From NCBI GenBank assembly GCA_012729315.1, contig JAAYDI010000004.1, positions 42,239 through 106,238 on the forward strand: a stretch of DNA of 64,000 nucleotides. Reading direction: 5' to 3'. Source of the stretch: Planctomycetaceae bacterium (lineage in GTDB: Bacteria > Planctomycetota > Planctomycetia > Pirellulales > Pirellulaceae). How positions within the stretch are numbered: position 1 is the stretch's first letter; each line of letters begins with the position of its first letter. The position numbers were made by a program, and so were the translations under genes. A model generated the notes under the pieces. It saw nothing but the letters and a program-made list of their open reading frames with translations. It had not been told where the DNA came from and did not search any database. Shown here one piece after another: positions 46,209 through 58,703 of the stretch.

Positions 46209-49200
46209 CTAGTTCGCTGCCGGCGCGGCCGTCAACTCCCGGCCGCTGGCGTTCGTCACCTCCACCCGGTAACCGTCAGGTGCCTGCACGCTGTACACCA
46301 GTTCGTCGCCGCGCCGTTCCCACTGCAGCTGGACCGGTCCGGCCGGGGTGGGGAGGCTGCCGCGACACCAGTCGAGTCGGACATCCGCCAGACGCACCTC
46401 GACGGTCTGATGTGGAATATCCATTCGGACAACCCCCAGCACATCGCGATAGAGCGTGTGCACGATGTGCGAGGCGAAGCCGTGGTTGCAGCTGGCGTAG
46501 GCGCCGTCGTTCTCCCAGAGTGTCCCCGTCCGCTCGGCCATGTACAGCAGGTAGGCTGTCGACTCGTCCAGAATCTGCTGCTGGTTTCCGTAACGCGACA
46601 GCAACTCGAATCGCAGCATGTTCCCGATGAACGAGTTGGCGACGTGCACGTCCCAGTGCGCCTTCGTCTCCTTGCGGCTGGGGCCGAACTCGTCGCGCAG
46701 CACGGTCCACAGCTGGCCATGTGTCTCGGGAGAGGCGACGTCGAAGAAGAACGCGAAGTACTGGCAGACTTCGCTGCGATTCCTGGTCACCTCCAGTTTC
46801 CCCTCCTTCCGTAGCGCGTTATCGACGAAGAACTGGCCGTCGAACGACTGCTGCCGAATGGCTTCACGGATCGTCTCAGCCTTGGCCTGCAGGTCGGGCA
46901 GGTCGTAGATCCGGCCGGCGGCCGCCAGGGCTGCGGCGTACAGCATGTTGCTGGGATAGTTCACATCCTGCACGAACTCGTTCGCCTTCGACCATTCGAC
47001 AAACACCCAGCTGGGGAGCTTTTCCAGTAGCCCGTCACTGTTCTCGTGGCCGGCGAAAAATGCGAACAGCTGCAGCACCTTCTCGCGCAGAGCGTCTACC
47101 GTGTGGCGATCACCACTGCGCTCCAGGTACTCCTCCAGCTGCACCACGAACCACAGTGACCAGTTGGGGATGAAGATCCCGTCGTTGTGGTCGGCCGGAT
47201 AGCACATGGGCAGCATGCCGGTCGGCAGGTACTCGAAGCGATCCGGCAGCAGGAAGTTCTCGAAGAAATTCTGCTCGACGAGCGTCGTGCCGGTCACGTC
47301 CCGGGCCACCCGCGATGTGAAGTAGCTGTCGCACAACCAGCCGGCTCGTTCGCGCGACGGGCAGTCCATGAACACATCCAGCACATTCTGGCGGAAGGTC
47401 TCGATGCCTGCCTTGTACAGCTCGTTCAGCTGGGGATCGCTGCACTCGAAGACCGCCTGCGTCGGATCCGGGTGCTTGTATTCCCGCAGGTGCACCTGCG
47501 TGACGCTGCAGGCCCCCTCCACGCAGATCAACTTGAGATACCGCAGGGTGTACGGTTCGATCGACTCCACGGTGTACGTCCCCGGATCCAGCTCGTAGCT
47601 CACCAGATTGACGCAGCCGAGACGCTTGAAGTCGACGTCCCCCTCCGTCAGGATCTCGTCGAACGCAAACCAGAGGCGGGACTTCTCCGCGCACTCGAGT
47701 GTACTCCCGATGAAGCCGGTCAGGTTGGTGCCAAAATCCAGGATCCGATAGGTTCCGGCGCTCAGCGCCACCGCCTCCGCCGGTTCGTACGGGCTGGCCA
47801 GCGGCTTGGATTCCTGGGAGCGCAGTGCCTGCATCTCCAGCGACGGGATGGTCTCCAACTGGTTCTCCGGATACCCCTTGAATTGCGGTCCGATGTTGAC
47901 CAGCGAGCGGTCCTTCCAGAGCTGGCCGGGCGGGTCCTGCTTCGTCATCTGTCCGGATGCCACATGCTGCACCGGATCGCGCATTTCGAATTGCGGGAGC
48001 AGCACGCGGCGCGGCAGCAACGGCTTGGCGGATACTTCCGACAGCTCCACCGAGTCCAGGATGGGAGCCGTGCTGTTGCGCCAGGCGTCAGTGCGGGGCG
48101 ACTGCCGATACACCTCGATAAATGCCCGCTGGAAACTGTACCGCTGCACACGCTGTACACGCGCTCCGGGGATCGTGGCGACGAAATCCAGCCCATCAGC
48201 GCCAGTGGCTGCCAATACCTCGTCCCGGTCCGTCACCACCTCGGCCTGCAGGAACGAGGGCTGATCGAGCGTGTTGTACGTGTTGACGTTGTAGCCGGCC
48301 ACTTCGATGGCCAGCACATTCTGGCCGGCACGCAGGTGGCGGGACAGATCCAGCACGTCCATCCGGTAATAGCCGTGCGGCCCGCGCGCCGGCCCGACGG
48401 CGACAAAGGAACCGTTGAGCCAGGCGCGATAGACTGTCGATGCGGCAATCTTCAAAGAGACACGCTGCTCCGGCTGGCTGGAGAAAATCGCCCGAAAACC
48501 GGTTGTCAGGTTCATCTCGGTCTCTCTGCCGGTGGGCCACACTGGCCGGGCCGACTGGAAAGCACACGGCTCCGCATCGGACGCCAAGGTCCGGAACCGT
48601 ACGTTGCGCAGAGCTCCGGTCGTGTTCCACGTGGCAATCCCCAGCGGCAGACACGGCTCCATCTCGCCCGTAACGTTCAGCTTGCGGTGCCCCGGCTCGA
48701 CGCCGCACAAGTACTTGTCATCCAGGTACGCCGACACTTTCTCGGGAGTCACCCGCAGGCGAATGTGATACCACTGGCCCGTCTTGAACTCCCGATACGT
48801 GCCCGTTTCGTTTTCTGCAGCTCGATTGCCGTCAATGCATGACAGGCCGACCACGCCGCCACCCCATCCACCCAGGATCAACGTCAGCGCGCCGTCGCCG
48901 ACAGGAAACGTCAGGCCACAGAAGAAGTCGTTCCCCTCGACGCGCCGACTCTCCAGCTCGAGTTCATAGTCGTAACGGGGGAACGCCCCGGTCCATCGAA
49001 CACCAGTGGCCGGTCGGCCCGACCCGATTACCAGGCACCCGTCCTGGACCTCCACTTGGCCGCCGTCCTCAAAATCGTAGCCGCTGGCAACTTCCCAGCC
49101 GGCCAGTGATTTGCCGTCGAACAGCGGAGTCCAGCCGCCATTCCCGTTCGAGGACGATTGCCGAGTGTCCGCCTCATGGTCCTGGGCCGTCAGGAGGCCG

Positions 49201-49259
49201 GATCCAGCAAATCCAGCAAATGTCAGGGCGATGACCAGTAGCACGCGAATCGATGTCAT
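46209..49259 (-). CDS. secreted DUF1080 (laminin-G-like) + GH78 alpha-L-rhamnosidase fusion
   Basis: Signal peptide, then a DUF1080-like segment (GWTPLFDGKSLAGWE). The remainder is organised like GH78: N-terminal beta-sandwiches, an (alpha/alpha)6 core and a C-terminal beta domain. Confidence 0.75.
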   Translation of the reverse strand: MTSIRVLLVIALTFAGFAGSGLLTAQDHEADTRQSSSNGNGGWTPLFDGKSLAGWEVASGYDFEDGGQVEVQDGCLVIGSGRPATGVRWTGAFPRYDYELELESRRVEGNDFFCGLTFPVGDGALTLILGGWGGGVVGLSCIDGNRAAENETGTYREFKTGQWYHIRLRVTPEKVSAYLDDKYLCGVEPGHRKLNVTGEMEPCLPLGIATWNTTGALRNVRFRTLASDAEPCAFQSARPVWPTGRETEMNLTTGFRAIFSSQPEQRVSLKIAASTVYRAWLNGSFVAVGPARGPHGYYRMDVLDLSRHLRAGQNVLAIEVAGYNVNTYNTLDQPSFLQAEVVTDRDEVLAATGADGLDFVATIPGARVQRVQRYSFQRAFIEVYRQSPRTDAWRNSTAPILDSVELSEVSAKPLLPRRVLLPQFEMRDPVQHVASGQMTKQDPPGQLWKDRSLVNIGPQFKGYPENQLETIPSLEMQALRSQESKPLASPYEPAEAVALSAGTYRILDFGTNLTGFIGSTLECAEKSRLWFAFDEILTEGDVDFKRLGCVNLVSYELDPGTYTVESIEPYTLRYLKLICVEGACSVTQVHLREYKHPDPTQAVFECSDPQLNELYKAGIETFRQNVLDVFMDCPSRERAGWLCDSYFTSRVARDVTGTTLVEQNFFENFLLPDRFEYLPTGMLPMCYPADHNDGIFIPNWSLWFVVQLEEYLERSGDRHTVDALREKVLQLFAFFAGHENSDGLLEKLPSWVFVEWSKANEFVQDVNYPSNMLYAAALAAAGRIYDLPDLQAKAETIREAIRQQSFDGQFFVDNALRKEGKLEVTRNRSEVCQYFAFFFDVASPETHGQLWTVLRDEFGPSRKETKAHWDVHVANSFIGNMLRFELLSRYGNQQQILDESTAYLLYMAERTGTLWENDGAYASCNHGFASHIVHTLYRDVLGVVRMDIPHQTVEVRLADVRLDWCRGSLPTPAGPVQLQWERRGDELVYSVQAPDGYRVEVTNASGRELTAAPAAN

Positions 49260-49509
49260 AACGCTGCGCAACCTATGCAGGAGATCGAGGTGTCGAAAGG
49301 CCGAACGCCGGGGGCGCGCGGAATACGCACTCGACGATAAACCACCGAGCAGCCTGCGGTCAACCAGCGAGAAAAATGTGCAGCCACGTGAGGGGAACCG
49401 GCGGTCCACGGCGATCAGAGGGCAGACCGTGCCTGCAGCAAGGACGGCAGGTCCTGCCAGCTGACCTGTCACCCCTGTTTACAGGAGTTCACTTCACAGG
49501 AGTTCACCT

Positions 49510-49815: not shown

Positions 49816-50515
49816 CGGGCCACACGCGCCGATCGGCCGCCGCTGCCCCCCCGCCCACTCCCGGCCGCACGCCGGGCCGGATTGTCAGCAGCCCTCTTGT
49901 GGGGGTTGTTTCCGAAAGCCAAAATGGCGGGTACAGCTGTGCGGCTTCGGGCAGTGAAGCGCGCTAAACCGCCCATTCATCCCAAGCAGAATAAACGCGT
50001 GCTGGCTCCTGATTCGCGCACAATCGTTTCGCGCCATTGTTCGACACGTCGACAAGGCTTAACCTATACTAGTCAAAGCACTGTTCGTAACCTGAATATG
50101 CGTAACGTGTTTTGTGATTTTGTACAAACCGGGTGGTGGGCGTTGCAAGAACGCATGCGGTGCAGCGCTGGCCTTAGATTTGTCAAAATCGGCAAAATGC
50201 GCATTCAGGCACGTCACTTGCTGCCTAAAAGGCGGGTTGTTATAGATAGGGGTTTCCCGTCGGTCGGGAAATCTCGGCAACTTTCCCCCCCAAAGACTGC
50301 CGTTGGCCGGGTGAGGTTGGCGGTCAGTTCCAGCCTGTGTTTTCGTGCCGTGAGGGCACCAGGAATGTGCCAACAAGGAGGTGTGCCGTGGGACGGGTGA
50401 CCGAACCGTCAGCGGGACATCAACAGGGCCTCGAGTGGTGCTGTTCCTGGACAACTGTTGATTCTGTTGTTGTATGTTTCGAACTTCGCTCGAGCTTCTG
50501 GAGGTTGAAGTCACC

Positions 50516-51187
50516 ATGAGACGACGAGTTGTGTTGATGGCTACGATTGTATCCATCGTTGGGTTAGCTTTTCTATTGTTCGGCCTCGGCCCGGCGACGC
50601 AGGCATCGAGTGATGTAGCGTACGGTTGGGCGGCCACCACGTCTGCGGCGGCCACCACGTCGGCGCCCGCTACGACCTGTGCTCCGGCGACGACCTGTGC
50701 GCCGAAGACGACCTGTGCGCCGAAGAAGAAGTGCCGTGCGCCTCGCGTCCGCGATTGCGCTCCGGCGACGACCTGTGCTCCGAAGACCACGTGTGCTCCG
50801 AAGGCCAAGCGGGCTGCGAAGACCACGTGCGCTCCGAAGACCACGTGCGCTCCGAAGGTTGTCTGCGAGCCGGCTACTACCTGTGCTCCGAAGACGACCT
50901 GCGCTCCCAAGAAGGATCGCAATGGTCTGTTTGGCCGTCGCGCCAAGACGACTTGTGCGCCGGCCACCACCTGTGCTCCGAAGACCACCTGCGCTCCGGC
51001 TACCACCTGCGCCCCGGCTACGACCTGTGCGCCCGCGGCTGCGGACGATGTGGCTCCGGCCGACGCGGCTCCGGCTGAGGAAGCTCCGGCTGCCGAGGCG
51101 GCCGCCGAGGAAGCTCCGCCTGCTGAGCCGGCCCCTGAGGCTGCTGCTGAGCCGGCCGCTCCTGCCGAGCCCGCTCCCGCCGAGTAG
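50516..51187 (+). CDS. secreted Cys/Thr hexapeptide-repeat protein ((A/K)TTCAP)n with acidic Ala/Pro/Glu tail
   Basis: GGAGG 12 nt upstream. Sec signal MRRRVVLMATIVSIVGLAFLLFGLGPATQA. About 14 perfect TTCAP(A/K) units plus about 5 degenerate ones, 17 Cys in total. The tail is APAEEAPAAE-rich. A strong terminator follows. Confidence 0.75.
   Translation: MRRRVVLMATIVSIVGLAFLLFGLGPATQASSDVAYGWAATTSAAATTSAPATTCAPATTCAPKTTCAPKKKCRAPRVRDCAPATTCAPKTTCAPKAKRAAKTTCAPKTTCAPKVVCEPATTCAPKTTCAPKKDRNGLFGRRAKTTCAPATTCAPKTTCAPATTCAPATTCAPAAADDVAPADAAPAEEAPAAEAAAEEAPPAEPAPEAAAEPAAPAEPAPAE
50636..51037 (+). repeat. 18-bp coding tandem repeat array (acgacctgtgcNccNNNN)
   Basis: About 19 consecutive units visible in the DNA. 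The antisense strand reads AGAQVV repeats. Confidence 0.85.
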
Positions 51188-51285
51188 TACCTGCCGAGAG
51201 CTGGCTTCAAGTCCACTGCATGCGAAGCGTCAGGGTTGACGCGGCGAGATGTGGTGCAGTAGAAGATACTGATTAGTTGCCTAGA

Positions 51286-51326
51286 CAGCCCAGGTCGCAC
51301 GCAAGTTGGACCTGGGCTGTTTTTTG
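51286..51326 (+). terminator. Rho-independent terminator
   Basis: Stem cagcccaggtc / gacctgggctg (11 bp, GC-rich) with a 12-nt loop, followed by tttttt. Confidence 0.8.
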
Positions 51327-51357
51327 TCTCCAGCAGCGTGCAGGTGGGATCGCGGCA

Positions 51358-54120
51358 TTGTCGACCTCCGTCATTGACTCGACCGACTCCCTGAACTCCA
51401 GGCATCTGGCAGCCGGCCGCCTCGGCGTCGCCTGGAGTATCGGGTTGGGGCTGTGCGCAGCATGGCTGGCTGCGGGTTCGCTGGGCACCCTGACCACGTC
51501 GCTGCAGGCGACGCTGTCCTGGCTGCTGCTGGGAGCCGCCGTCCTCTGTGCGCAACCCCGGCTGAAACCTGGCGGCTGGTGCGTTCTGGCTGGCGCCATT
51601 CTGGTGCTCGCCGCGGTACCAGCCATCGTGGCGCCGGTGCGGCAGGGCCTGACGCTGACCGTCGCGGCGGTGATGGGGGGGATGGCGGCCGGACTGGTGG
51701 ATCCAGCGCGACGTCTGATGTTGGCAGGCGCGGTGGCCGTATTGACGCTGGCGGTCTATCGTCTGGCGCAGCAGTCGGTACCTGCCATCTGGATGCTCAG
51801 CGATGCGCTGGGCGGTCTGATGGGATACGTCGCTGCTGGCGCGCTTCGCAGGCCACTGGCGGTCGGCGCGAGCTTTGGCGGGCTCGACCTGGTGATCGTC
51901 ATGGGCGTGTTCTGTGCTCTCTGGGTGCGGGCTTTGCGTGGCCCGCGTCTGGCATCGGCGCTGTTCGCGGTGGGGGCGATTGGGGCCGTGCACTTCCTCT
52001 ATCTGACGATCCTGGCCTGCACGCCCGAGATCCTCAGCCGTCTGCCGCCGGTCGAGCCTCCGGCGATGGGCAACCCGTACGTTCCGCCCCCGTTCAGCTG
52101 GCTCCTGGTCGTGCGCCAGCTCTTGCCCTGGAATCTGCCGGCCCTGGCGGCGCTTCTGTACCTGGTGCTGGTCGTCGTGCTGATCCGGACAGGCGTTTAT
52201 CGGGTGGACAGCCCCGAGCTGGCGATGTCGGCGGGCCGGCGTGACGCGGGGTGGCGCGCGGTGGTGATCTTGTTGGGCCTGGCCCTCATCCTGCCCTGGT
52301 GCGGGCTGTTCCGCACTGGCCAGAGCCTGGCGGGGAAGCGGATCGTGGCCAACATGCACGGGCAGCTCGATTGGGAAACACCCCAGCACGATGAGTACGG
52401 GCGTGAGCAGGCCGGCATGTACGGCATGCTGCCCTCCTTCGTCGCCAGTCTGGGGGCGGAGTTGCAGCTCTCATCGGACCTGAGCAGCGCTGATCTCGCC
52501 TCCGCGGACGCCGTGCTCCTGCTGAATCCCGACACCGAACTGTCGTTAGAGCAGCAGGATCGAGTCTGGCAGTACGTGCGCGACGGCGGTTCGATGCTGG
52601 TCGTGACCGAAGGCTTCCTGCCGGAGAATGGACTGGAGCGGCGTGTCAACGAACTGCTGCAACCGACGTCAATATCGGTCCATCGCGACGCGGCGATGTC
52701 CGAGACCACAGACTGGTGGGGATCGATCCGCGCCTTGGAGCATCCGGCCATGACGTCGGTCTATCCGGCTGCGCGGCGGGTGTTCTCCGATCTGGGAGCG
52801 TCGGTCGAGGTGCGCTGGCCGGCGCGGCCCTTGGCCCTGGGGATCTGGGGATGGAGCGCGCCGGAACAAGGGGCGACCTTGATGGGTGCTGCCAGCCTGC
52901 TGCCCGGTGCCCGGCTGGGGGACCTGGTGCTGGCTGCTGAACAGCGCGTGGGGGCGGGCCGTGTCCTGGTGTTGGGTGACCGCTACAGCCTGACGAATGA
53001 GGGGTTGGTCAACGGCCACACGTTTGTCGCGGACCTGTTGTCCTATCTGGCTGCACCCACCTCCGGTCCCCAGGCGATGTGGCGCCAATTCGGCACGGTG
53101 CTATGCCTGGCCGGCCTGTTGGGGCTGGTCGCGTGGCACATCAGTGGGCCCAGGCTGATGGCCACTTGTGTGTTGTTGGCCAGTTCGCTGGCGCTGGCCC
53201 AGCTGGTGATCGCCAGCAGTTCGTCGGTCATGCCCGACGGCACGCAGCGACTTGCCGGTGCAGTTCACACGCCACCGAACCGTGTGGCGTACATCGACGC
53301 CACGCATCTGGAACCGTACAGCGTCCGGGACTGGTCGTTCGATGCGCTCAACGGCCTGGTGCTGAATCTCGCACGCAACGGCTACCTGCCGCTGGCCCTC
53401 CACGAGTTCGACGCCGCGCGTTTGGAGCGGGCCGGTCTGTTCGTGTCGATCGGGCCCGCGCGGGCGTTTTCGAGCGCTGAACGGGCGTGTCTCAGGCAGT
53501 TTGTCCAGCGCGGTGGCATCTTGATCAGCATGGTGGGAGCGGAGGAGGCGGCGGCCAGCGCCGCACTGCTGGCCGATTTCGGACTCCGCGTGCCACCCTC
53601 GCCCGTGCCCACCTGCGGCACGGACTTCGAACCGGAGCCGTTTGGACGCACACGCGCCAACTACCTGGAGGTGTCACAGGAAGCGGATAGCTACCTGGTG
53701 GCGGCTCGGCTGCATGCCGCCTGGCCGGTCGAACCGCAAGTCCAAGAGGCAGAGGTACTGGCCTACGGGCACAATCAACTGCCCGTCGTCCAGAGCGAAG
53801 CGGAATTGCCCGTGATCGTTACCTGCCGGTTCGGGCAGGGACAGGTCGTACTGATCGGCGACACCTGTTTTGCGATGAACAAGAACCTCGAATACATCGG
53901 TGGTGAACCGTTTCATGGTGCGTACGAGAACGCGCACTTCTGGCGCTGGCTGCTGACGCGGTTACAGGGTCAGCCGGAGTGGGTGCCGCCGCGACCGCCA
54001 GCACGCGTGCAGGAACCGGACGACGAGGCGGCTGAGGTTGCGCCGGAGGAGGACATGCCGGAGGAGGAAATGTTCCAGGAGGAAGCGCCGGAGGAGGAAG
54101 CGCCGGAGGAGGAAGCATAG
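51358..54120 (+). CDS. large membrane protein: N-terminal polytopic domain + two periplasmic GldG/ThuA/DUF4350-like domains separated by a TM helix, acidic PEEEA tail
   Basis: About 8 N-terminal TM helices. Two repeats of the motif class xxVLLLNPDT...YVRDGGSMLVVTEG / GAGRVLVLGDRYSLTNE and GLFVSIGPA...FVQRGGILISMVG / GQVVLIGDTCFAMNKN. The start is uncertain; TTG 51358 is the first candidate after the terminator. Confidence 0.55.
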   Translation: MSTSVIDSTDSLNSRHLAAGRLGVAWSIGLGLCAAWLAAGSLGTLTTSLQATLSWLLLGAAVLCAQPRLKPGGWCVLAGAILVLAAVPAIVAPVRQGLTLTVAAVMGGMAAGLVDPARRLMLAGAVAVLTLAVYRLAQQSVPAIWMLSDALGGLMGYVAAGALRRPLAVGASFGGLDLVIVMGVFCALWVRALRGPRLASALFAVGAIGAVHFLYLTILACTPEILSRLPPVEPPAMGNPYVPPPFSWLLVVRQLLPWNLPALAALLYLVLVVVLIRTGVYRVDSPELAMSAGRRDAGWRAVVILLGLALILPWCGLFRTGQSLAGKRIVANMHGQLDWETPQHDEYGREQAGMYGMLPSFVASLGAELQLSSDLSSADLASADAVLLLNPDTELSLEQQDRVWQYVRDGGSMLVVTEGFLPENGLERRVNELLQPTSISVHRDAAMSETTDWWGSIRALEHPAMTSVYPAARRVFSDLGASVEVRWPARPLALGIWGWSAPEQGATLMGAASLLPGARLGDLVLAAEQRVGAGRVLVLGDRYSLTNEGLVNGHTFVADLLSYLAAPTSGPQAMWRQFGTVLCLAGLLGLVAWHISGPRLMATCVLLASSLALAQLVIASSSSVMPDGTQRLAGAVHTPPNRVAYIDATHLEPYSVRDWSFDALNGLVLNLARNGYLPLALHEFDAARLERAGLFVSIGPARAFSSAERACLRQFVQRGGILISMVGAEEAAASAALLADFGLRVPPSPVPTCGTDFEPEPFGRTRANYLEVSQEADSYLVAARLHAAWPVEPQVQEAEVLAYGHNQLPVVQSEAELPVIVTCRFGQGQVVLIGDTCFAMNKNLEYIGGEPFHGAYENAHFWRWLLTRLQGQPEWVPPRPPARVQEPDDEAAEVAPEEDMPEEEMFQEEAPEEEAPEEEA

Positions 54121-56675
54121 TGCGGATCTGGTTCGCGACAGCGTTTCTGGCCAGCGCGTGGTTATTTGGCCTCGGCTATTTCACGCCGGTCCACCTGGTG
54201 GCCTGGATCGGTGCGGTGGTGGTCGCGGTCCTGCTGCTGGGCGATGTGCCCGTTCGCCTTCCACGGCGGGGTGAACGCGGGTTGGCACTGCTGCTGGTGC
54301 TGCCGGCGCTCTGGCTGGCGCCGTTTCCGTATTGCAGCATGCCCATTCTGCTGAGTTGCGGGCTGCTGGCATCACTGCTGCCCGTGCGGGGCACGAGCAT
54401 GCGGTTTGTGACGCGCGGGTGTTTGCTGGCCAGCCTGATTCTCCTGCCCCAGGCGCTGCTGCTGCTGGGCTACCAGAATCTGACCGCGCGCTCACATGCG
54501 TTGCCCCACGTGCTGGCAGCGCCCGTAGCCGGCATCCTGCGACTGCTCGGCGCGGACGTGGCGCTGGATGGCACATCGCTGGTGCTGCAGGACACGGGGG
54601 TCACCGATCGGATCGCGGCGAGCTGGGAGCTGTTGTGGGACCCGGCCACGGCCAGCGTCGTGGCGGGTGGGTTGGTAGTGCTGGCCTACCTGGCCAGCTT
54701 GCGCCGGCATGCGCCGGGGCAGTGCCGAGCGTTTCTGCGCGGCGCAGGGGTGCTGTTGCTGGTGACGCTCGCCTGGGCGCCGCTGCGGCTGGCCCTGCTG
54801 GTCGCGCTGGTGCTGCAGCAGCAGTTGCGGGCCGATGTGGCGGCGTTCCCCAATGTGGGGCAGATTCTGGTCAGTTCCTGGGTGCACGCGGTCCTGGTGT
54901 GCGCGTGGGCCGTGGTGCTCGGCCGCCTCGTGCCGCTGCCTGGCCCGCGTTTGTCTGGCGCCGCCCCCGCCCGGGCGCAGGCCAGTCGGTGTCCGGCGCG
55001 CCTCCGGCGGCGTGGCGCGGTCCTGGCCGCGTATGCCATTGCCGTGGCGATGCTCGTCTTTCTCTACTGTTGGACGCCGGTCGGTGAGCGGAAGGCGGGA
55101 CGCGTGATGGTAGTCGAGCGGCATTCCGCCTGGGAGCCGACGACGGAGCCGTACGGTACGGAAGTGTATGGCGAGGCGGGATCCTACAATTATGCGGCCA
55201 TCTACGCCTATTGCAGCCAGTATTACGACATGTCGCGCCTCGCGGCCGACGACCCGCTGGATGATGGAACGCTGGAGTTGTGTGACGTTCTGATCATCAA
55301 GACCCCCACGGCGCGCTACGCCCCTGAGGAAGTGGAGGCGGTGGTCAGGTTCGTCGACCGCGGCGGTTCGCTGCTACTGATCGGCGATCATACCAACGTG
55401 TTCAACATGAACACTTACCTGAACGACATTGCCCGCCACTTCGGGTTCACGTTCCGCAATGACCTGTTGTTCCGCGTCGGTGATCCGTACCGCCAGCAGT
55501 ACCGGCCGCCGGCGCTGGCGCATCCGCTGCTGCAGCACGTGCCGCCCATGTCGTTTGCCGTGTCGTGTTCGATCGATCCGGGATCGTCCCGCGGCTCGAT
55601 GGTGATCCGCAACGTAGGGTTGTTCAACCTGCCTCCTGCATATCAGGAATCGAACTATCATCCGCAGGCCGAGTATCGGCCATACATGGAGTACGGCGCC
55701 TGGTGTCAGCTCTGGAGCACCGTCTTCGGGCGTGGCAAGGTACTCGCGTTCGCCGACTCCACGCTGTTCTCGAACTTCTGCGTCTACCAGCCGGGCAAGA
55801 CCGAGCTGTTCATGAGCATGGTCGAATGGTTGAATCACCACCCGGGCCGCGGCGTCCCGCGGAATCGGGCGCTGTGGATCCTCACCGCGCTCGTCGCGTG
55901 CGTGCTCGGCTGTCTGGGGCTGCGTGAGAAGGCCGGTGCCTGGATTCTGGTGTTGTCGGTCACCTGGTGTGCCTGGAGCGTAGCGGTCGGCGGCACGCTT
56001 CACCTGCACGGGCGTGCCCTGCCGCTGCCCGCGAAGAAGCAGTCGCTGCAACACGTGGTGATCGACCGGTCCCTGTCGACCGTACCGCTGTTCACGGGTG
56101 CGTTCGCCGACGACCCGGAAGGAGGTGGTTACGGGCTGCTCGAACAGTGGATTCCCCGCGTCGGGAATTACACTTCGCGGCGCGGCGGCATGGAGGTACT
56201 CTCAGGCGATGCGCTGGTCGTGATCTGCCCGACGCTGCTGCCCGGTCCTCAGTTTCGCGACGCGCTGCTGGACTGGGTCCAGTCGGGTGGCCGTCTGCTG
56301 GTGTTCGACACGCCCGACGTGGAGGAGTCGACGGCCAACAGTCTTTTGCAGCTATTCGGGCTGACATCGATCCACAACGCGGCGGATCAGGAGGACGAGC
56401 CTCTGCGTCTGGCGGAACCGTCGCTGGAGACGCCGCTGCAGGCCGCGTGCGAGATCCAGGGGGGCGAACCGTTGGCGTTCTGGGGTGAGGTGCCGATTGC
56501 CGCGCGGACCCGCTTTGGAGACGGCTGGGTGACTGCCGTCGGGTTCGGCTCGTTGTTCAATGATGCGAGCATGGGTTATCACTGGCTCGAGCCGCCGGGC
56601 GAGCCGCAGCTGCAGCGGTACGAGATCCTCTACGCGCTGCTCCGCGCCGCCCTGCAGGAGCCTCCGGAGCGGTGA
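54120..56675 (+). CDS. paralog of preceding gene: polytopic N-domain + two GldG/ThuA/DUF4350-like periplasmic domains
   Basis: GTG start overlaps the upstream TAG (TAGTG). Same architecture as the preceding gene: CDVLIIKTP...FVDRGGSLLLIGDHTN / GKVLAFADSTLFSNF, a TM helix, then GDALVVICP...WVQSGGRLLVFDTPD / GWVTAVGFGSLFND. Confidence 0.6.
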   Translation: MRIWFATAFLASAWLFGLGYFTPVHLVAWIGAVVVAVLLLGDVPVRLPRRGERGLALLLVLPALWLAPFPYCSMPILLSCGLLASLLPVRGTSMRFVTRGCLLASLILLPQALLLLGYQNLTARSHALPHVLAAPVAGILRLLGADVALDGTSLVLQDTGVTDRIAASWELLWDPATASVVAGGLVVLAYLASLRRHAPGQCRAFLRGAGVLLLVTLAWAPLRLALLVALVLQQQLRADVAAFPNVGQILVSSWVHAVLVCAWAVVLGRLVPLPGPRLSGAAPARAQASRCPARLRRRGAVLAAYAIAVAMLVFLYCWTPVGERKAGRVMVVERHSAWEPTTEPYGTEVYGEAGSYNYAAIYAYCSQYYDMSRLAADDPLDDGTLELCDVLIIKTPTARYAPEEVEAVVRFVDRGGSLLLIGDHTNVFNMNTYLNDIARHFGFTFRNDLLFRVGDPYRQQYRPPALAHPLLQHVPPMSFAVSCSIDPGSSRGSMVIRNVGLFNLPPAYQESNYHPQAEYRPYMEYGAWCQLWSTVFGRGKVLAFADSTLFSNFCVYQPGKTELFMSMVEWLNHHPGRGVPRNRALWILTALVACVLGCLGLREKAGAWILVLSVTWCAWSVAVGGTLHLHGRALPLPAKKQSLQHVVIDRSLSTVPLFTGAFADDPEGGGYGLLEQWIPRVGNYTSRRGGMEVLSGDALVVICPTLLPGPQFRDALLDWVQSGGRLLVFDTPDVEESTANSLLQLFGLTSIHNAADQEDEPLRLAEPSLETPLQAACEIQGGEPLAFWGEVPIAARTRFGDGWVTAVGFGSLFNDASMGYHWLEPPGEPQLQRYEILYALLRAALQEPPER

Positions 56676-56891: not shown

Positions 56892-58703
56892 TTGCGGCGC
56901 AACGACATTCGCAATCTGGTGATTATCGCGCACGTGGATCACGGCAAGACGACGTTGGTGGATTGTCTGCTGCGCGAGTGCGGGCAGTTCCGCCAGTCGC
57001 AACTGCAGGGGGAACGGATACTCGATGCGAACGACCTGGAGCGCGAACGCGGGATTACGATCGTCGCGAAGAACATTGCCCTGCCGCACAAAGGGGTCAA
57101 GATCAACGTCATTGACACGCCGGGGCACGCCGATTTCGGGGGCGAGGTGGAACGGGTGGTCAGCATGGCGGATGGTGCCTTGCTGCTGGTCGATGCGGCG
57201 GAAGGTCCCATGCCGCAGACACGTTTCGTACTCTCCAAAGCGCTGGCCTGCGGTCTGCAGCCGATCCTGGTGATCAACAAGATCGACCGCCCGGACGCCC
57301 GTGCCCACGAGGTGCTCGATGAGACATTCGAGCTGATCATGGAGCTGGCCGGCGACGAGCGTCTGAATGACCTGCCTTACGTATTCACGACGGCCAAAGA
57401 GGGCTACGCGACGACGGATCCCCACGTGCCGACCGGCTCGATGCAGCTGCTGTTGGACCTCGTCCTGGAACATGTTCCCGGCCCGGCCGTCCAACCGGCG
57501 GCGCCGCTGCAGATGCTCGTGACGACCATTGACTGGTCCCAGTACGTCGGGCGGATCGCGATTGGCCGGATTGCGGCCGGGACGATTCACAGCGGCCGCC
57601 GCGTCGGGCTGTCCCACAAAGATGGGTCGATCACGCCCGCGCCCGTCGCGTCGCTCATGGTGTTCCAGAATCTGGACCGCGTTGAAGTGGCATCTGCCAG
57701 CGCCGGGGACATTGTCGCTGTGGTGGGGCTGGAGGATGTGGAGATCGGAGACACGGTGTGCGATCTCGAACGGCCGGTACCGCTGCCGCGTCTGGTGGTA
57801 GACGAGCCGACCCTGGAGATGATCTTCACGATCAACTCGTCGCCGCTGTCCGGGCGGGATGGCAAGTACGTGACCAGCCGGCAGCTGCGGGAACGGCTGT
57901 TTCGCGAGCTGGAAGGCAATGTCGCGCTGCGGGTGCGACCGGTGGAAGGGACCGACGGGTTCGCCGTGGCGGGCCGGGGCGTGTTGCACCTGTCGGTGCT
58001 GATCGAGACGATGCGCCGCGAAGGGTTCGAGTTTTCCGTGGGCAAGCCGCGCGTCATCTACCGTCTGGTGGGCGGTGTCCGACACGAGCCGTTTGAAACA
58101 CTCATCGTGGAGGTGCCGGCTGAGTATCTGGGGCGGATCATGGAACTGGTGGGGCAGCGGCGCGGCAAGCTGGAACACATGCAGCCGCGGGGCGAGTACA
58201 CCTGCGCCACCTTCCGCATCTCGGCCCGCGGGTTGATCGGGCTGCGCACCCAGGCGCTGAATGCCACGCAGGGCACGGCGCTGCTGCATCACCGGTTTGC
58301 CGACTATGGCCCCGTGGAAGATGAGCTGCCGCGGCGCTCCAACGGCGTGCTGGTATCCAACGTTAAAGGACGCGCCGTGGCATACGCCCTGGCCGGACTG
58401 CAGGAACGGGCCGAGATGTTCGTGGCACCGGGCGACGACATCTATGAGGGGATGATCGTCGGCGAAAACAGTCGCGAAAACGACCTGACCGTCAATCCGG
58501 CCAAGGAGAAGAAGCTGACCAATATCCGGGCGGCTGGCAGCGACGAAAACATCCTGCTCAAGCCACCCCGCATCATGTCGCTGGAAGCCGCGCTCGAATA
58601 CGTCGAAGAGGATGAGCTGGTCGAGGTGACGCCCCGCCAGATCCGGTTGCGAAAAATCCTCCTCCACGAAATCGATCGCCGTCGGAAGGCACGCGCCACG
58701 TAG
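56892..58703 (+). CDS. typA: translational GTPase TypA/BipA
   Basis: G1 to G4 motifs (AHVDHGKTT, DTPGH, NKID) and EF-G-like domains. Apparent TTG start. Confidence 0.9.
   Translation: MRRNDIRNLVIIAHVDHGKTTLVDCLLRECGQFRQSQLQGERILDANDLERERGITIVAKNIALPHKGVKINVIDTPGHADFGGEVERVVSMADGALLLVDAAEGPMPQTRFVLSKALACGLQPILVINKIDRPDARAHEVLDETFELIMELAGDERLNDLPYVFTTAKEGYATTDPHVPTGSMQLLLDLVLEHVPGPAVQPAAPLQMLVTTIDWSQYVGRIAIGRIAAGTIHSGRRVGLSHKDGSITPAPVASLMVFQNLDRVEVASASAGDIVAVVGLEDVEIGDTVCDLERPVPLPRLVVDEPTLEMIFTINSSPLSGRDGKYVTSRQLRERLFRELEGNVALRVRPVEGTDGFAVAGRGVLHLSVLIETMRREGFEFSVGKPRVIYRLVGGVRHEPFETLIVEVPAEYLGRIMELVGQRRGKLEHMQPRGEYTCATFRISARGLIGLRTQALNATQGTALLHHRFADYGPVEDELPRRSNGVLVSNVKGRAVAYALAGLQERAEMFVAPGDDIYEGMIVGENSRENDLTVNPAKEKKLTNIRAAGSDENILLKPPRIMSLEAALEYVEEDELVEVTPRQIRLRKILLHEIDRRRKARAT

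Follow-up and report, generated by a model that had tools for sequence, protein, structure and literature searches.

A conserved pair of overlapping planctomycete genes encodes GIFT-domain membrane proteins and recurs beside cysteine-rich secreted repeat proteins

Introduction

The closest described relatives of the proteins reported here carry alpha/beta domains of the GIFT type. GldG, the accessory protein of the GldAFG gliding-motility ATP-binding cassette (ABC) transporter, has a periplasmic GIFT-type domain flanked by transmembrane (TM) helices (ABC_transp_aux, PF09822; TIGR03521). IFT52 carries such a domain at its N terminus and is a soluble cytoplasmic eukaryotic scaffold for protein-protein contacts in the intraflagellar transport (IFT) complex IFT-B. 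For the GIFT domains of OST48/Wbp1, in oligosaccharyltransferase (OST), a role as a platform that docks or recruits substrates has been discussed (PMC7226087). Archaeal DUF4350 proteins of arCOG01314 are predicted to form a secretion or membrane-remodeling complex with a MoxR ATPase and vWA proteins (PMC5898192). Here we describe two overlapping genes, A and B, found in a 64-kb stretch of DNA (the window) from a Planctomycetaceae bacterium (assembly GCA_012729315.1, contig JAAYDI010000004.1), whose products each combine two GIFT/DUF4350 domains with an orphan polytopic domain.

A and B differ from each of these systems. The arCOG01314 proteins share the Pfam domain, are membrane anchored and extracytoplasmic, and are predicted to belong to envelope-associated complexes, but they carry a signal peptide plus one TM helix at the C terminus and lie in MoxR/vWA operons, neither of which is seen at A-B loci (PMC5898192). 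A full-text literature search for DUF4350 led to this paper, which deals with the archaeal proteins and not with the A-B family. OST keeps its polytopic catalytic subunit (STT3, of known GT-C fold) as a separate protein, whereas the polytopic domain of B is fused to its GIFT domains and has no GT-C match, and there is no sequence relationship beyond the fold. The likeness to GldG extends to weak hidden Markov model matches; unlike GldG, A and B have no ABC ATPase or ABC-2 permease partner, their GIFT domain is duplicated and fused to an orphan 9-TM domain, and they form an obligate pair. Two diverged paralogs of one layout (polytopic plus periplasmic domain) that are encoded by adjacent genes and form a heterodimer are known in LptF and LptG. 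A and B resemble them in general layout only; the LptFG fold differs, the LptB ATPase is needed there, and no relationship is implied.

Unusually protein-rich envelopes have been ascribed to planctomycetes since the 1980s, and we know of no assembly machinery for this layer. Wall preparations from planctomycetes are reported to contain Cys-rich proteins (PMC8567305, PMC12673574). The domain type in A and B is known; what is new is that it is fused to an orphan polytopic domain, that the two proteins occur as an obligate pair, and that they are linked to secreted high-sulfur proteins. The pair gives the GIFT domain a new context outside ABC transporters, IFT, and OST, and there is a substantial chance that we are dealing with an envelope-assembly system of a new kind. 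Hundreds of species share the pair, which repeatedly lies beside secreted proteins of 6 to 26% Cys and is a genetically testable candidate for envelope machinery.

Gene pair and protein architecture

Features of the pair are listed below. Position 1 is the first letter of the window, and both genes are on the + strand.

51358-54120 (+): gene A, with a 9-TM-like N-domain, a GIFT/DUF4350 domain, a TM hairpin, a second GIFT/DUF4350 domain, and an acidic tail (open reading frame [ORF], Pfam, homologs).
51358-52317 (+): A N-domain, amino acids (aa) 1 to 320, polytopic, without family assignment (hydropathy segments, conservation).
52318-53082 (+): A periplasmic GIFT/DUF4350 domain 1, aa 321 to 575 (Pfam DUF4350 at 359 to 554; IFT52 profile match, E value 4e-8).
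53083-53217 (+): A TM hairpin, aa ~578 to 596 and 600 to 618 (hydropathy of A and of its family profile).
53218-53997 (+): A periplasmic GIFT/DUF4350 domain 2, aa 621 to 880 (Pfam IFT52_GIFT at 683 to 729; IFT52 profile match).
53998-54117 (+): A acidic Pro/Ala/Glu tail, of low complexity (conserved in close relatives only).
54118-54122 (+): TAGTG stop/start overlap of A and B, a site of putative translational coupling (GGAGGAGGA ~8 to 16 nt upstream; 1- or 4-nt overlaps typical across loci).
54120-56675 (+): gene B, with the same layout as A (ORF, Pfam, AlphaFold2 [AF2] model).
54120-55079 (+): B N-domain, aa 1 to 320, with 9 TM helices, a periplasmic helix, and a three-stranded sheet (AF2 models, conservation).
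55080-55859 (+): B periplasmic GIFT domain 1, aa 321 to 580, the best-conserved segment of either protein (at least 90% conservation in 133 of 260 columns).
55860-56024 (+): B TM hairpin, helices 583 to 600 and 607 to 633 (hydropathy, AF2 model).
56025-56672 (+): B periplasmic GIFT/DUF4350 domain 2, aa 636 to 851 (Pfam DUF4350 at 665 to 820; GH42 middle-domain profile matches).

An earlier reading of the window (the original prediction) had called two long same-strand ORFs of about 920 and 851 aa, and ORF calls and translations bear this out. Gene A runs from a TTG start at 51358, the start residue of an identical database protein (P0001), to a TAG stop ending at 54120 and encodes 920 aa; gene B runs from a GTG at 54120 to 56675 and encodes 851 aa. 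As had been stated, the GTG of B overlaps the TAG of A, and a single base is common to both codons (GCATAGTGCGG). The Shine-Dalgarno-like GGAGGAGGA run ~8 to 16 nt 5′ of the B start is supplied by the terminal Glu-coding repeats of A, whose C terminus reads ...EEAPEEEAPEEEA, the PEEEA-type acidic end noted earlier. Database entries label both proteins only as "hypothetical" or "DUF4350 domain-containing."

The full-length AF2 model of B has a mean predicted local distance difference test (pLDDT) score of 86.9 and a predicted template modeling (pTM) score of 0.89. The AF2 models show 9 TM helices in its N-domain, together with a periplasmic helix and a three-stranded sheet at aa 130 to 172, so the ~8 helices counted in the original prediction had to be corrected. 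A single helix had also been placed between the alpha/beta domains; hydropathy and the B model instead give two (A, 578 to 596 and 600 to 618 by hydropathy; B, 583 to 600 and 607 to 633 in the AF2 model). Because this hairpin separates the two alpha/beta domains, both are periplasmic. Arg-rich loops alternate with uncharged ones across the membrane. The order is thus a cytoplasmic N terminus, 9 TM helices, periplasmic domain 1, the TM hairpin, and periplasmic domain 2, with 11 membrane passes per subunit.

A and B had been described as paralogous, and this holds for one part of the proteins. Their alpha/beta domains align with hhalign probabilities of 93 to 98% (A domain 1 with B domain 1, 98.4%; A domain 2 with A domain 1, 97.9%) and by BLASTP with 22% identity (E value, 2e-6). 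Between the N-domains, in contrast, no sequence similarity was detectable (hhalign probability, 0.4%), and only the TM layout is alike. The TM segments of the two families nearly coincide from position ~176 on, and hydropathy cross-correlation of the N-domains peaks at shift 0 with an r value of 0.49, which is not distinctive. These data suggest a common layout, which does not prove homology.

Conservation of the pair

Relatives of B were found in 397 GTDB species genomes. Taxonomy labels were read for 80 listed loci of these genomes, and nearly all are Planctomycetota: mostly Pirellulales (Pirellulaceae) and Thermoguttaceae, with a few Phycisphaerae and one Nealsonbacteria label. One Pirellulaceae metagenome-assembled genome (MAG) is 95% identical to the window. 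Homologs of A numbered 43, with 32 to 71% identity across those aligned.

In 76 of 85 loci the gene immediately upstream of B, on the same strand, belongs to the A family, typically with an overlap of 1 or 4 nt; 7 of the 9 exceptions are contig ends, where less than 3 kb precedes B. What is conserved is thus the pair and not either gene alone, an argument for a stoichiometric complex. We propose that A and B are the subunits of an inner-membrane complex, most likely a 1:1 pseudo-symmetric heterodimer.

Two B-family genes lack a detectable A although over 3.6 kb of sequence precedes them (L056, 3620 to 6535, and L086, 5083 to 7566; one is from a Phycisphaerae MAG), and these may be B-only lineages. 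Four MFD long-read MAGs (L012, L019, L037, and L082) have A split into two ORFs, and L019 has B split as well; the splits are probably frameshift errors of long-read assembly rather than pseudogenes.

B is more constrained than A. The conserved columns of its GIFT domain 1 include five Cys residues, C365, C388, C483, C529, and C554, while A has no conserved Cys. In the N-domain of A, invariant or near-invariant residues are D177 (in FAGLDFL) and a PWNLP loop (P257, W258, N259, and P261). In that of B, Q111, T122, R124, W169, L171, and W219 are invariant and H126 and R223 nearly so. The conserved polar residues of B (Q111, T122-A-R124-x-H126 of TARxHELP, W169, and R223) map at or near the inferred periplasmic face, a placement that would be typical of enzymes or receptors acting on lipid-linked or membrane-proximal substrates. 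The functional core of the complex would comprise B GIFT domain 1 and the outer face of the B membrane domain.

Periplasmic GIFT/DUF4350 domains

The fold proposed earlier for the alpha/beta domains (GldG/ThuA/DUF4350; GIFT, class-I-glutamine-amidotransferase-like) agrees with Pfam, profile, and structural matches. DUF4350 (PF14258) scored 63.9 bits in A and 53.2 bits in B against a Pfam cutoff of 30.4, with two stretches in each protein, and ABC_transp_aux, IFT52_GIFT, and ThuA matched more weakly. The alpha/beta domain matched solved GIFT domains (IFT52/OST48/GldG) in structure. The motif pairs quoted in the original prediction are legible in all four domains of the two translations. The class I glutamine amidotransferase nucleophile Cys was found at the elbow of none of the four, which read GDH (B domain 1), FDTPD (B domain 2), VTEG (A domain 1), and VGAEE (A domain 2); the closest structures are noncatalytic members of this class.

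The GldG likeness raises the alternative that A-B supplies the permease and the accessory protein of a GldFG-like ABC exporter, with the ATPase gene at another place in the genome. The periplasmic domains do match ABC_transp_aux/GldG models (B, 35.4 bits; cutoff, 34.7), and a fusion of a polytopic and a GldG-like domain resembles a permease-accessory fusion. The TIGR03521 GldG equivalog model, however, gave 19.5 and 11.7 bits against a cutoff of 389.85. The 9-TM domain of B has no ABC permease match in the PDB and no ABC2_membrane Pfam match at an E value of ≤10. Consistent with the original prediction, which had contrasted the fusion with the usual auxiliaries of ABC exporters, no ABC ATPase, ABC-2 permease, MoxR, or vWA gene was present in the inspected neighborhoods or the recurrent neighbor clusters of 86 loci. 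We regard an ABC exporter as very improbable.

Orphan N-terminal membrane domain

The N-domain had been described as polytopic and of unknown type, and it is indeed an orphan. The first ~320 residues of A and of B have no Pfam or NCBIfam family match, and searches of both collections with 28 N-domain family members gave nothing consistent even at an E value of ≤10. Foldseek comparison of a separate AF2 model of B residues 1 to 326 (pLDDT, 86.4) with the PDB gave no match at an E value of ≤1e-3, and no TM-score exceeded 0.25. Searched exhaustively with an HMMER profile of the B N-domain, 1.84 billion representatives yielded 439 proteins, and the 150 matches listed were all B-like full-length proteins or short fragments.

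Several folds had been named earlier as worth checking. For the B N-domain, the absence of a structural match in the PDB rules out GT-C and ABC-2 folds, as well as Wzy/WaaL (O-antigen ligase) and similar ones. The PDB holds no exosortase structure, so this comparison does not cover exosortases, and these were examined by sequence. Annotated exosortases were collected with a consensus sequence (tblastn on plasmids), followed by 120 homologs, and the resulting alignment was compared by hhalign. The N-domain of B scored a probability of 0.3% and that of A 0.5%, and neither PF09721 (exosortase/archaeosortase) nor a TIGR exosortase model matched the N-domains even at an E value of ≤10. Exosortase thus lacks sequence support. 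The N-domains have no conserved Cys, hence no exosortase catalytic Cys.

The N-domains might instead be catalytically dead, highly diverged exosortase-like domains that still bind or sort envelope proteins; Trp would then stand in place of the Cys in B, and the FAGLD motif in A. By eye only, aa 130 to 172 of B (a helix, three strands, and A-S-W-E-L) resemble G..V.rEGN.i.fP..LEV.dACSGlRS, followed by a conserved Arg, and the best, insignificant hhalign alignment sets FAGLD of A on ACSGLR of exosortase. Beyond the profile results above, the HMMER family of the B N-domain is tiny and self-contained, and the neighboring repeat proteins described below have no C-terminal TM sorting signal. This origin appears quite improbable.

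The conserved polar residues of B bear on another alternative, a periplasm-facing glycosyl- or oligosaccharyltransferase or ligase-type complex that would use a lipid-linked donor at the orphan polytopic domains. Conserved Arg, His, and Asp residues would act at the outer leaflet and the GIFT domains would take the OST48/Wbp1 role, decorating Thr (or Cys) of mucin-like TTCAP/TTSAP repeats or another envelope polymer. The position of the polar residues at the inferred periplasmic face and the Thr/Ala/Pro-rich nature of the neighboring repeats fit such an enzyme, as does a weak profile match of the A N-domain to an "oligosaccharyltransferase" chain (9rmk; E value, 0.0045). The 9rmk match, however, is a low-complexity TM alignment, and none of the solved membrane enzyme folds, GT-C and WaaL/Wzy-type included, is matched by the B N-domain. 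Sugar-nucleotide, polyprenol, and flippase genes are not conserved near A-B, and sugar binding by GIFT domains is itself only a proposal (PMC7226087). We consider a transferase of this kind unlikely.

Cys-rich repeat proteins and a possible role in envelope assembly

Three features upstream of A concern a repeat gene that the original prediction had tentatively joined to the pair as a module.

50207-50221 (+): sigma-54-type -24/-12 element GGCACG-N4-TTGC (AGGCACGTCACTTGC), upstream of the repeat gene (recurs in related loci).
50474-51187 (+): secreted TTCAP(K/A) Cys-repeat protein with a signal peptide and an Ala/Pro/Glu tail (probable start, MRRR codon at 50516; family beside A-B in 23 loci).
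51283-51327 (+): terminator-like hairpin between the repeat gene and A, with an 11-bp GC-rich core followed by T6 (folding free energy [dG], -33 kcal/mol; z score, -5.0).

Relatives of the TTCAP(K/A) protein lie directly upstream of A in ~16 loci of a Pirellulaceae clade. A phmmer search found the same repeat family in 8 further loci, Thermoguttaceae included, where the gene is convergent and 0.1 to 6.4 kb downstream of B; its products combine a signal peptide with CAPKACAPAAC-type repeats and KxCRxPRxC spacers and contain 11 to 26% Cys. In a distant clade (B 38 to 39% identical), A is preceded by a gene for a DUF7901/GEVED/dockerin protein that ends in ~350 residues of TxCPxxx heptads; GEVED and dockerin are missing from one of the four such proteins. 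Among 34 nonredundant, well-sampled loci (at least 2 kb of upstream and at least 7 kb of downstream sequence), 20 have, by raw count, a Cys-rich secreted repeat gene in the A-B flanks. At least three arrangements occur across several clades: upstream codirectional, downstream convergent, and the TxCPxxx-heptad array on a DUF7901/GEVED/dockerin protein. Since orientations and repeat-protein types differ between separate clades, a functional link is favored over inherited synteny. Most repeat genes adjoin A or lie within ~2 kb of the end of B (three are 2.5 to 6.4 kb away), and the only Cys-repeat gene in the window is the one beside A.

The CAP-type proteins (TTCAPK, CAPKACAPAAC, or CEPATC repeats with KxCRxPRxC spacers) are small, secreted, and 6 to 26% Cys. 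Members are found on the - strand at L064 (12823 to 13560), L072 (14445 to 15278), L055 (18490 to 19074), L057 (14141 to 15040), and L031 (8620 to 9246). With scores of 53 to 81 bits (cutoff, 27), several fall within Pfam Keratin_B2_2 (high-sulfur keratin-associated protein). The CAP-type proteins are candidates for a disulfide-cross-linked envelope matrix. The four heptad proteins, all on the + strand directly upstream of A, are large and secreted, with TxCPxxx of perfect period (e.g., TQCPVVATRCPTVATRCPAVN): L068 (3639 to 7202), L062 (2623 to 6027), and L074 (3498 to 7004) have two DUF7901 domains, GEVED, and dockerin, while L081 (2628 to 5087) has one DUF7901 and an HpiC1-like domain. Pfam YTV did not match the heptad proteins at an E value of ≤1.

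The genomic association, the high-sulfur neighbors, and the reports of Cys-rich wall proteins together suggest a role for A-B in the assembly, cross-linking, anchoring, or modification of Cys-rich repeat proteins into the envelope, which we put forward tentatively as the likeliest of the readings considered. The complex would display four GIFT domains in the periplasm just above the membrane and would work without an adjacent ABC ATPase. This platform would receive Sec-exported, Cys/Pro/Thr-rich, high-sulfur, keratin-associated-protein-like repeat proteins on the periplasmic side, which would then be assembled, cross-linked, anchored, or modified into the protein-rich planctomycete envelope. 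More specifically, A-B could be an unrecognized type of ATPase-independent envelope-building heterodimer, with orphan 9-TM domains and a very highly conserved periplasmic GIFT domain that polymerize, disulfide-cross-link, or covalently modify the keratin-associated-protein-like repeat proteins; this is possible but, on present evidence, doubtful. If true, the cystine/proline-rich protein layer long reported from planctomycete cell walls would be a product of A-B.

Several observations weigh against a tie between A-B and the repeat proteins. A Cys-rich neighbor is absent from 14 of the 34 well-sampled loci, so that paralog pairs do occur without one, a situation the original prediction had named as counting against it. 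Around A-B in the window, the conserved terminator-like hairpin parts the repeat gene from A, and the sigma-54-type element is confined to the repeat gene. The remaining neighbors vary (TypA, sigma-54 activators, PALP, and an FAD oxidoreductase) and point to no pathway. The module as first proposed thus stands in its recurrent genomic association and falls in obligate adjacency; cotranscription is doubtful. The matching Ala/Pro/Glu tails that had been offered as a further link are compositional: the tail of A is of low complexity and is kept in close relatives only, which rules it out as a link.

The same observations fit a lineage-specific housekeeping scaffold of the envelope or membrane, unrelated to the Cys-repeat proteins, whose adjacency to them would reflect inherited synteny plus chance. 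Loci without a Cys-rich neighbor, a terminator and separate promoter element that set the repeat gene apart, and the housekeeping gene typA following B both here and in one related locus (L001) would all be expected of it. Recurrence of the association in other orientations, with other repeat-protein types, and in separate clades argues against it, as do the short distances of most repeat genes from the pair and the position of the window's sole Cys-repeat gene. We judge such a scaffold unlikely. Even if the link to repeat proteins were spurious, the pair would still be a large, lineage-defining membrane complex.

Transcription signals around the repeat gene

Seven related loci have the hairpin, and paired changes in its stem, A-U to G-C among them, can be seen by eye. 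Of 15 related loci, 10 have a GGCA(C/T)G-N4-TTGC element upstream of the orthologous repeat gene, where the background is ~0.01 per 480 nt. The terminator-like hairpin and the gene's own promoter element indicate that the repeat gene is probably a separately controlled, sigma-54-dependent unit, as judged from these sequence signals. Upstream of A a sigma-54 promoter element is essentially absent, occurring in 1 of 70 loci, the background level. A-B may be expressed by read-through or from an unrecognized promoter.

A conserved ~25-nt box (GAAGAGACTGATCTGTTGCCnAnACAG) lies directly 5′ of the hairpin (together 51258 to 51327, + strand) amid divergent intergenic DNA, and box and hairpin may be more than a plain terminator, e.g., an attenuator or a 3′ untranslated region RNA. 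Rfam gave only a subthreshold Acido-Lenti-1 match to this intergenic element (E value, 0.58).

Other neighboring genes

Neighbor clustering across the 86 loci found no conserved third gene; the variable genes around A-B include typA, sigma-54 activators, a PALP enzyme, a large FAD oxidoreductase, and hemerythrin. Directly downstream of B, a TypA/BipA translational GTPase gene (56892 to 58703, + strand; TIGR01394, 842.9 bits) is syntenic in L001 and not in more distant loci. Sigma-54-dependent activators (PAS or receiver domain, Sigma54_activat, and HTH_8) lie beside A-B in ~19 loci, on either side (e.g., L003, 8352 to 9734; L006, 15529 to 16887; and L023, 7289 to 8890). A gene for an FAD_oxidored (PF12831) protein of ~1150 aa lies a few kilobases downstream of B in roughly 16 to 28 of the 86 loci (e.g., L003, 17365 to 20844, and L005, 17926 to 21363). 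Farther upstream in the window, a 1087-aa ORF at 46209 to 49472 (- strand) occupies the place where L001 has a 1022-aa 3keto-disac_hyd plus Bac_rhamnosid6H protein.

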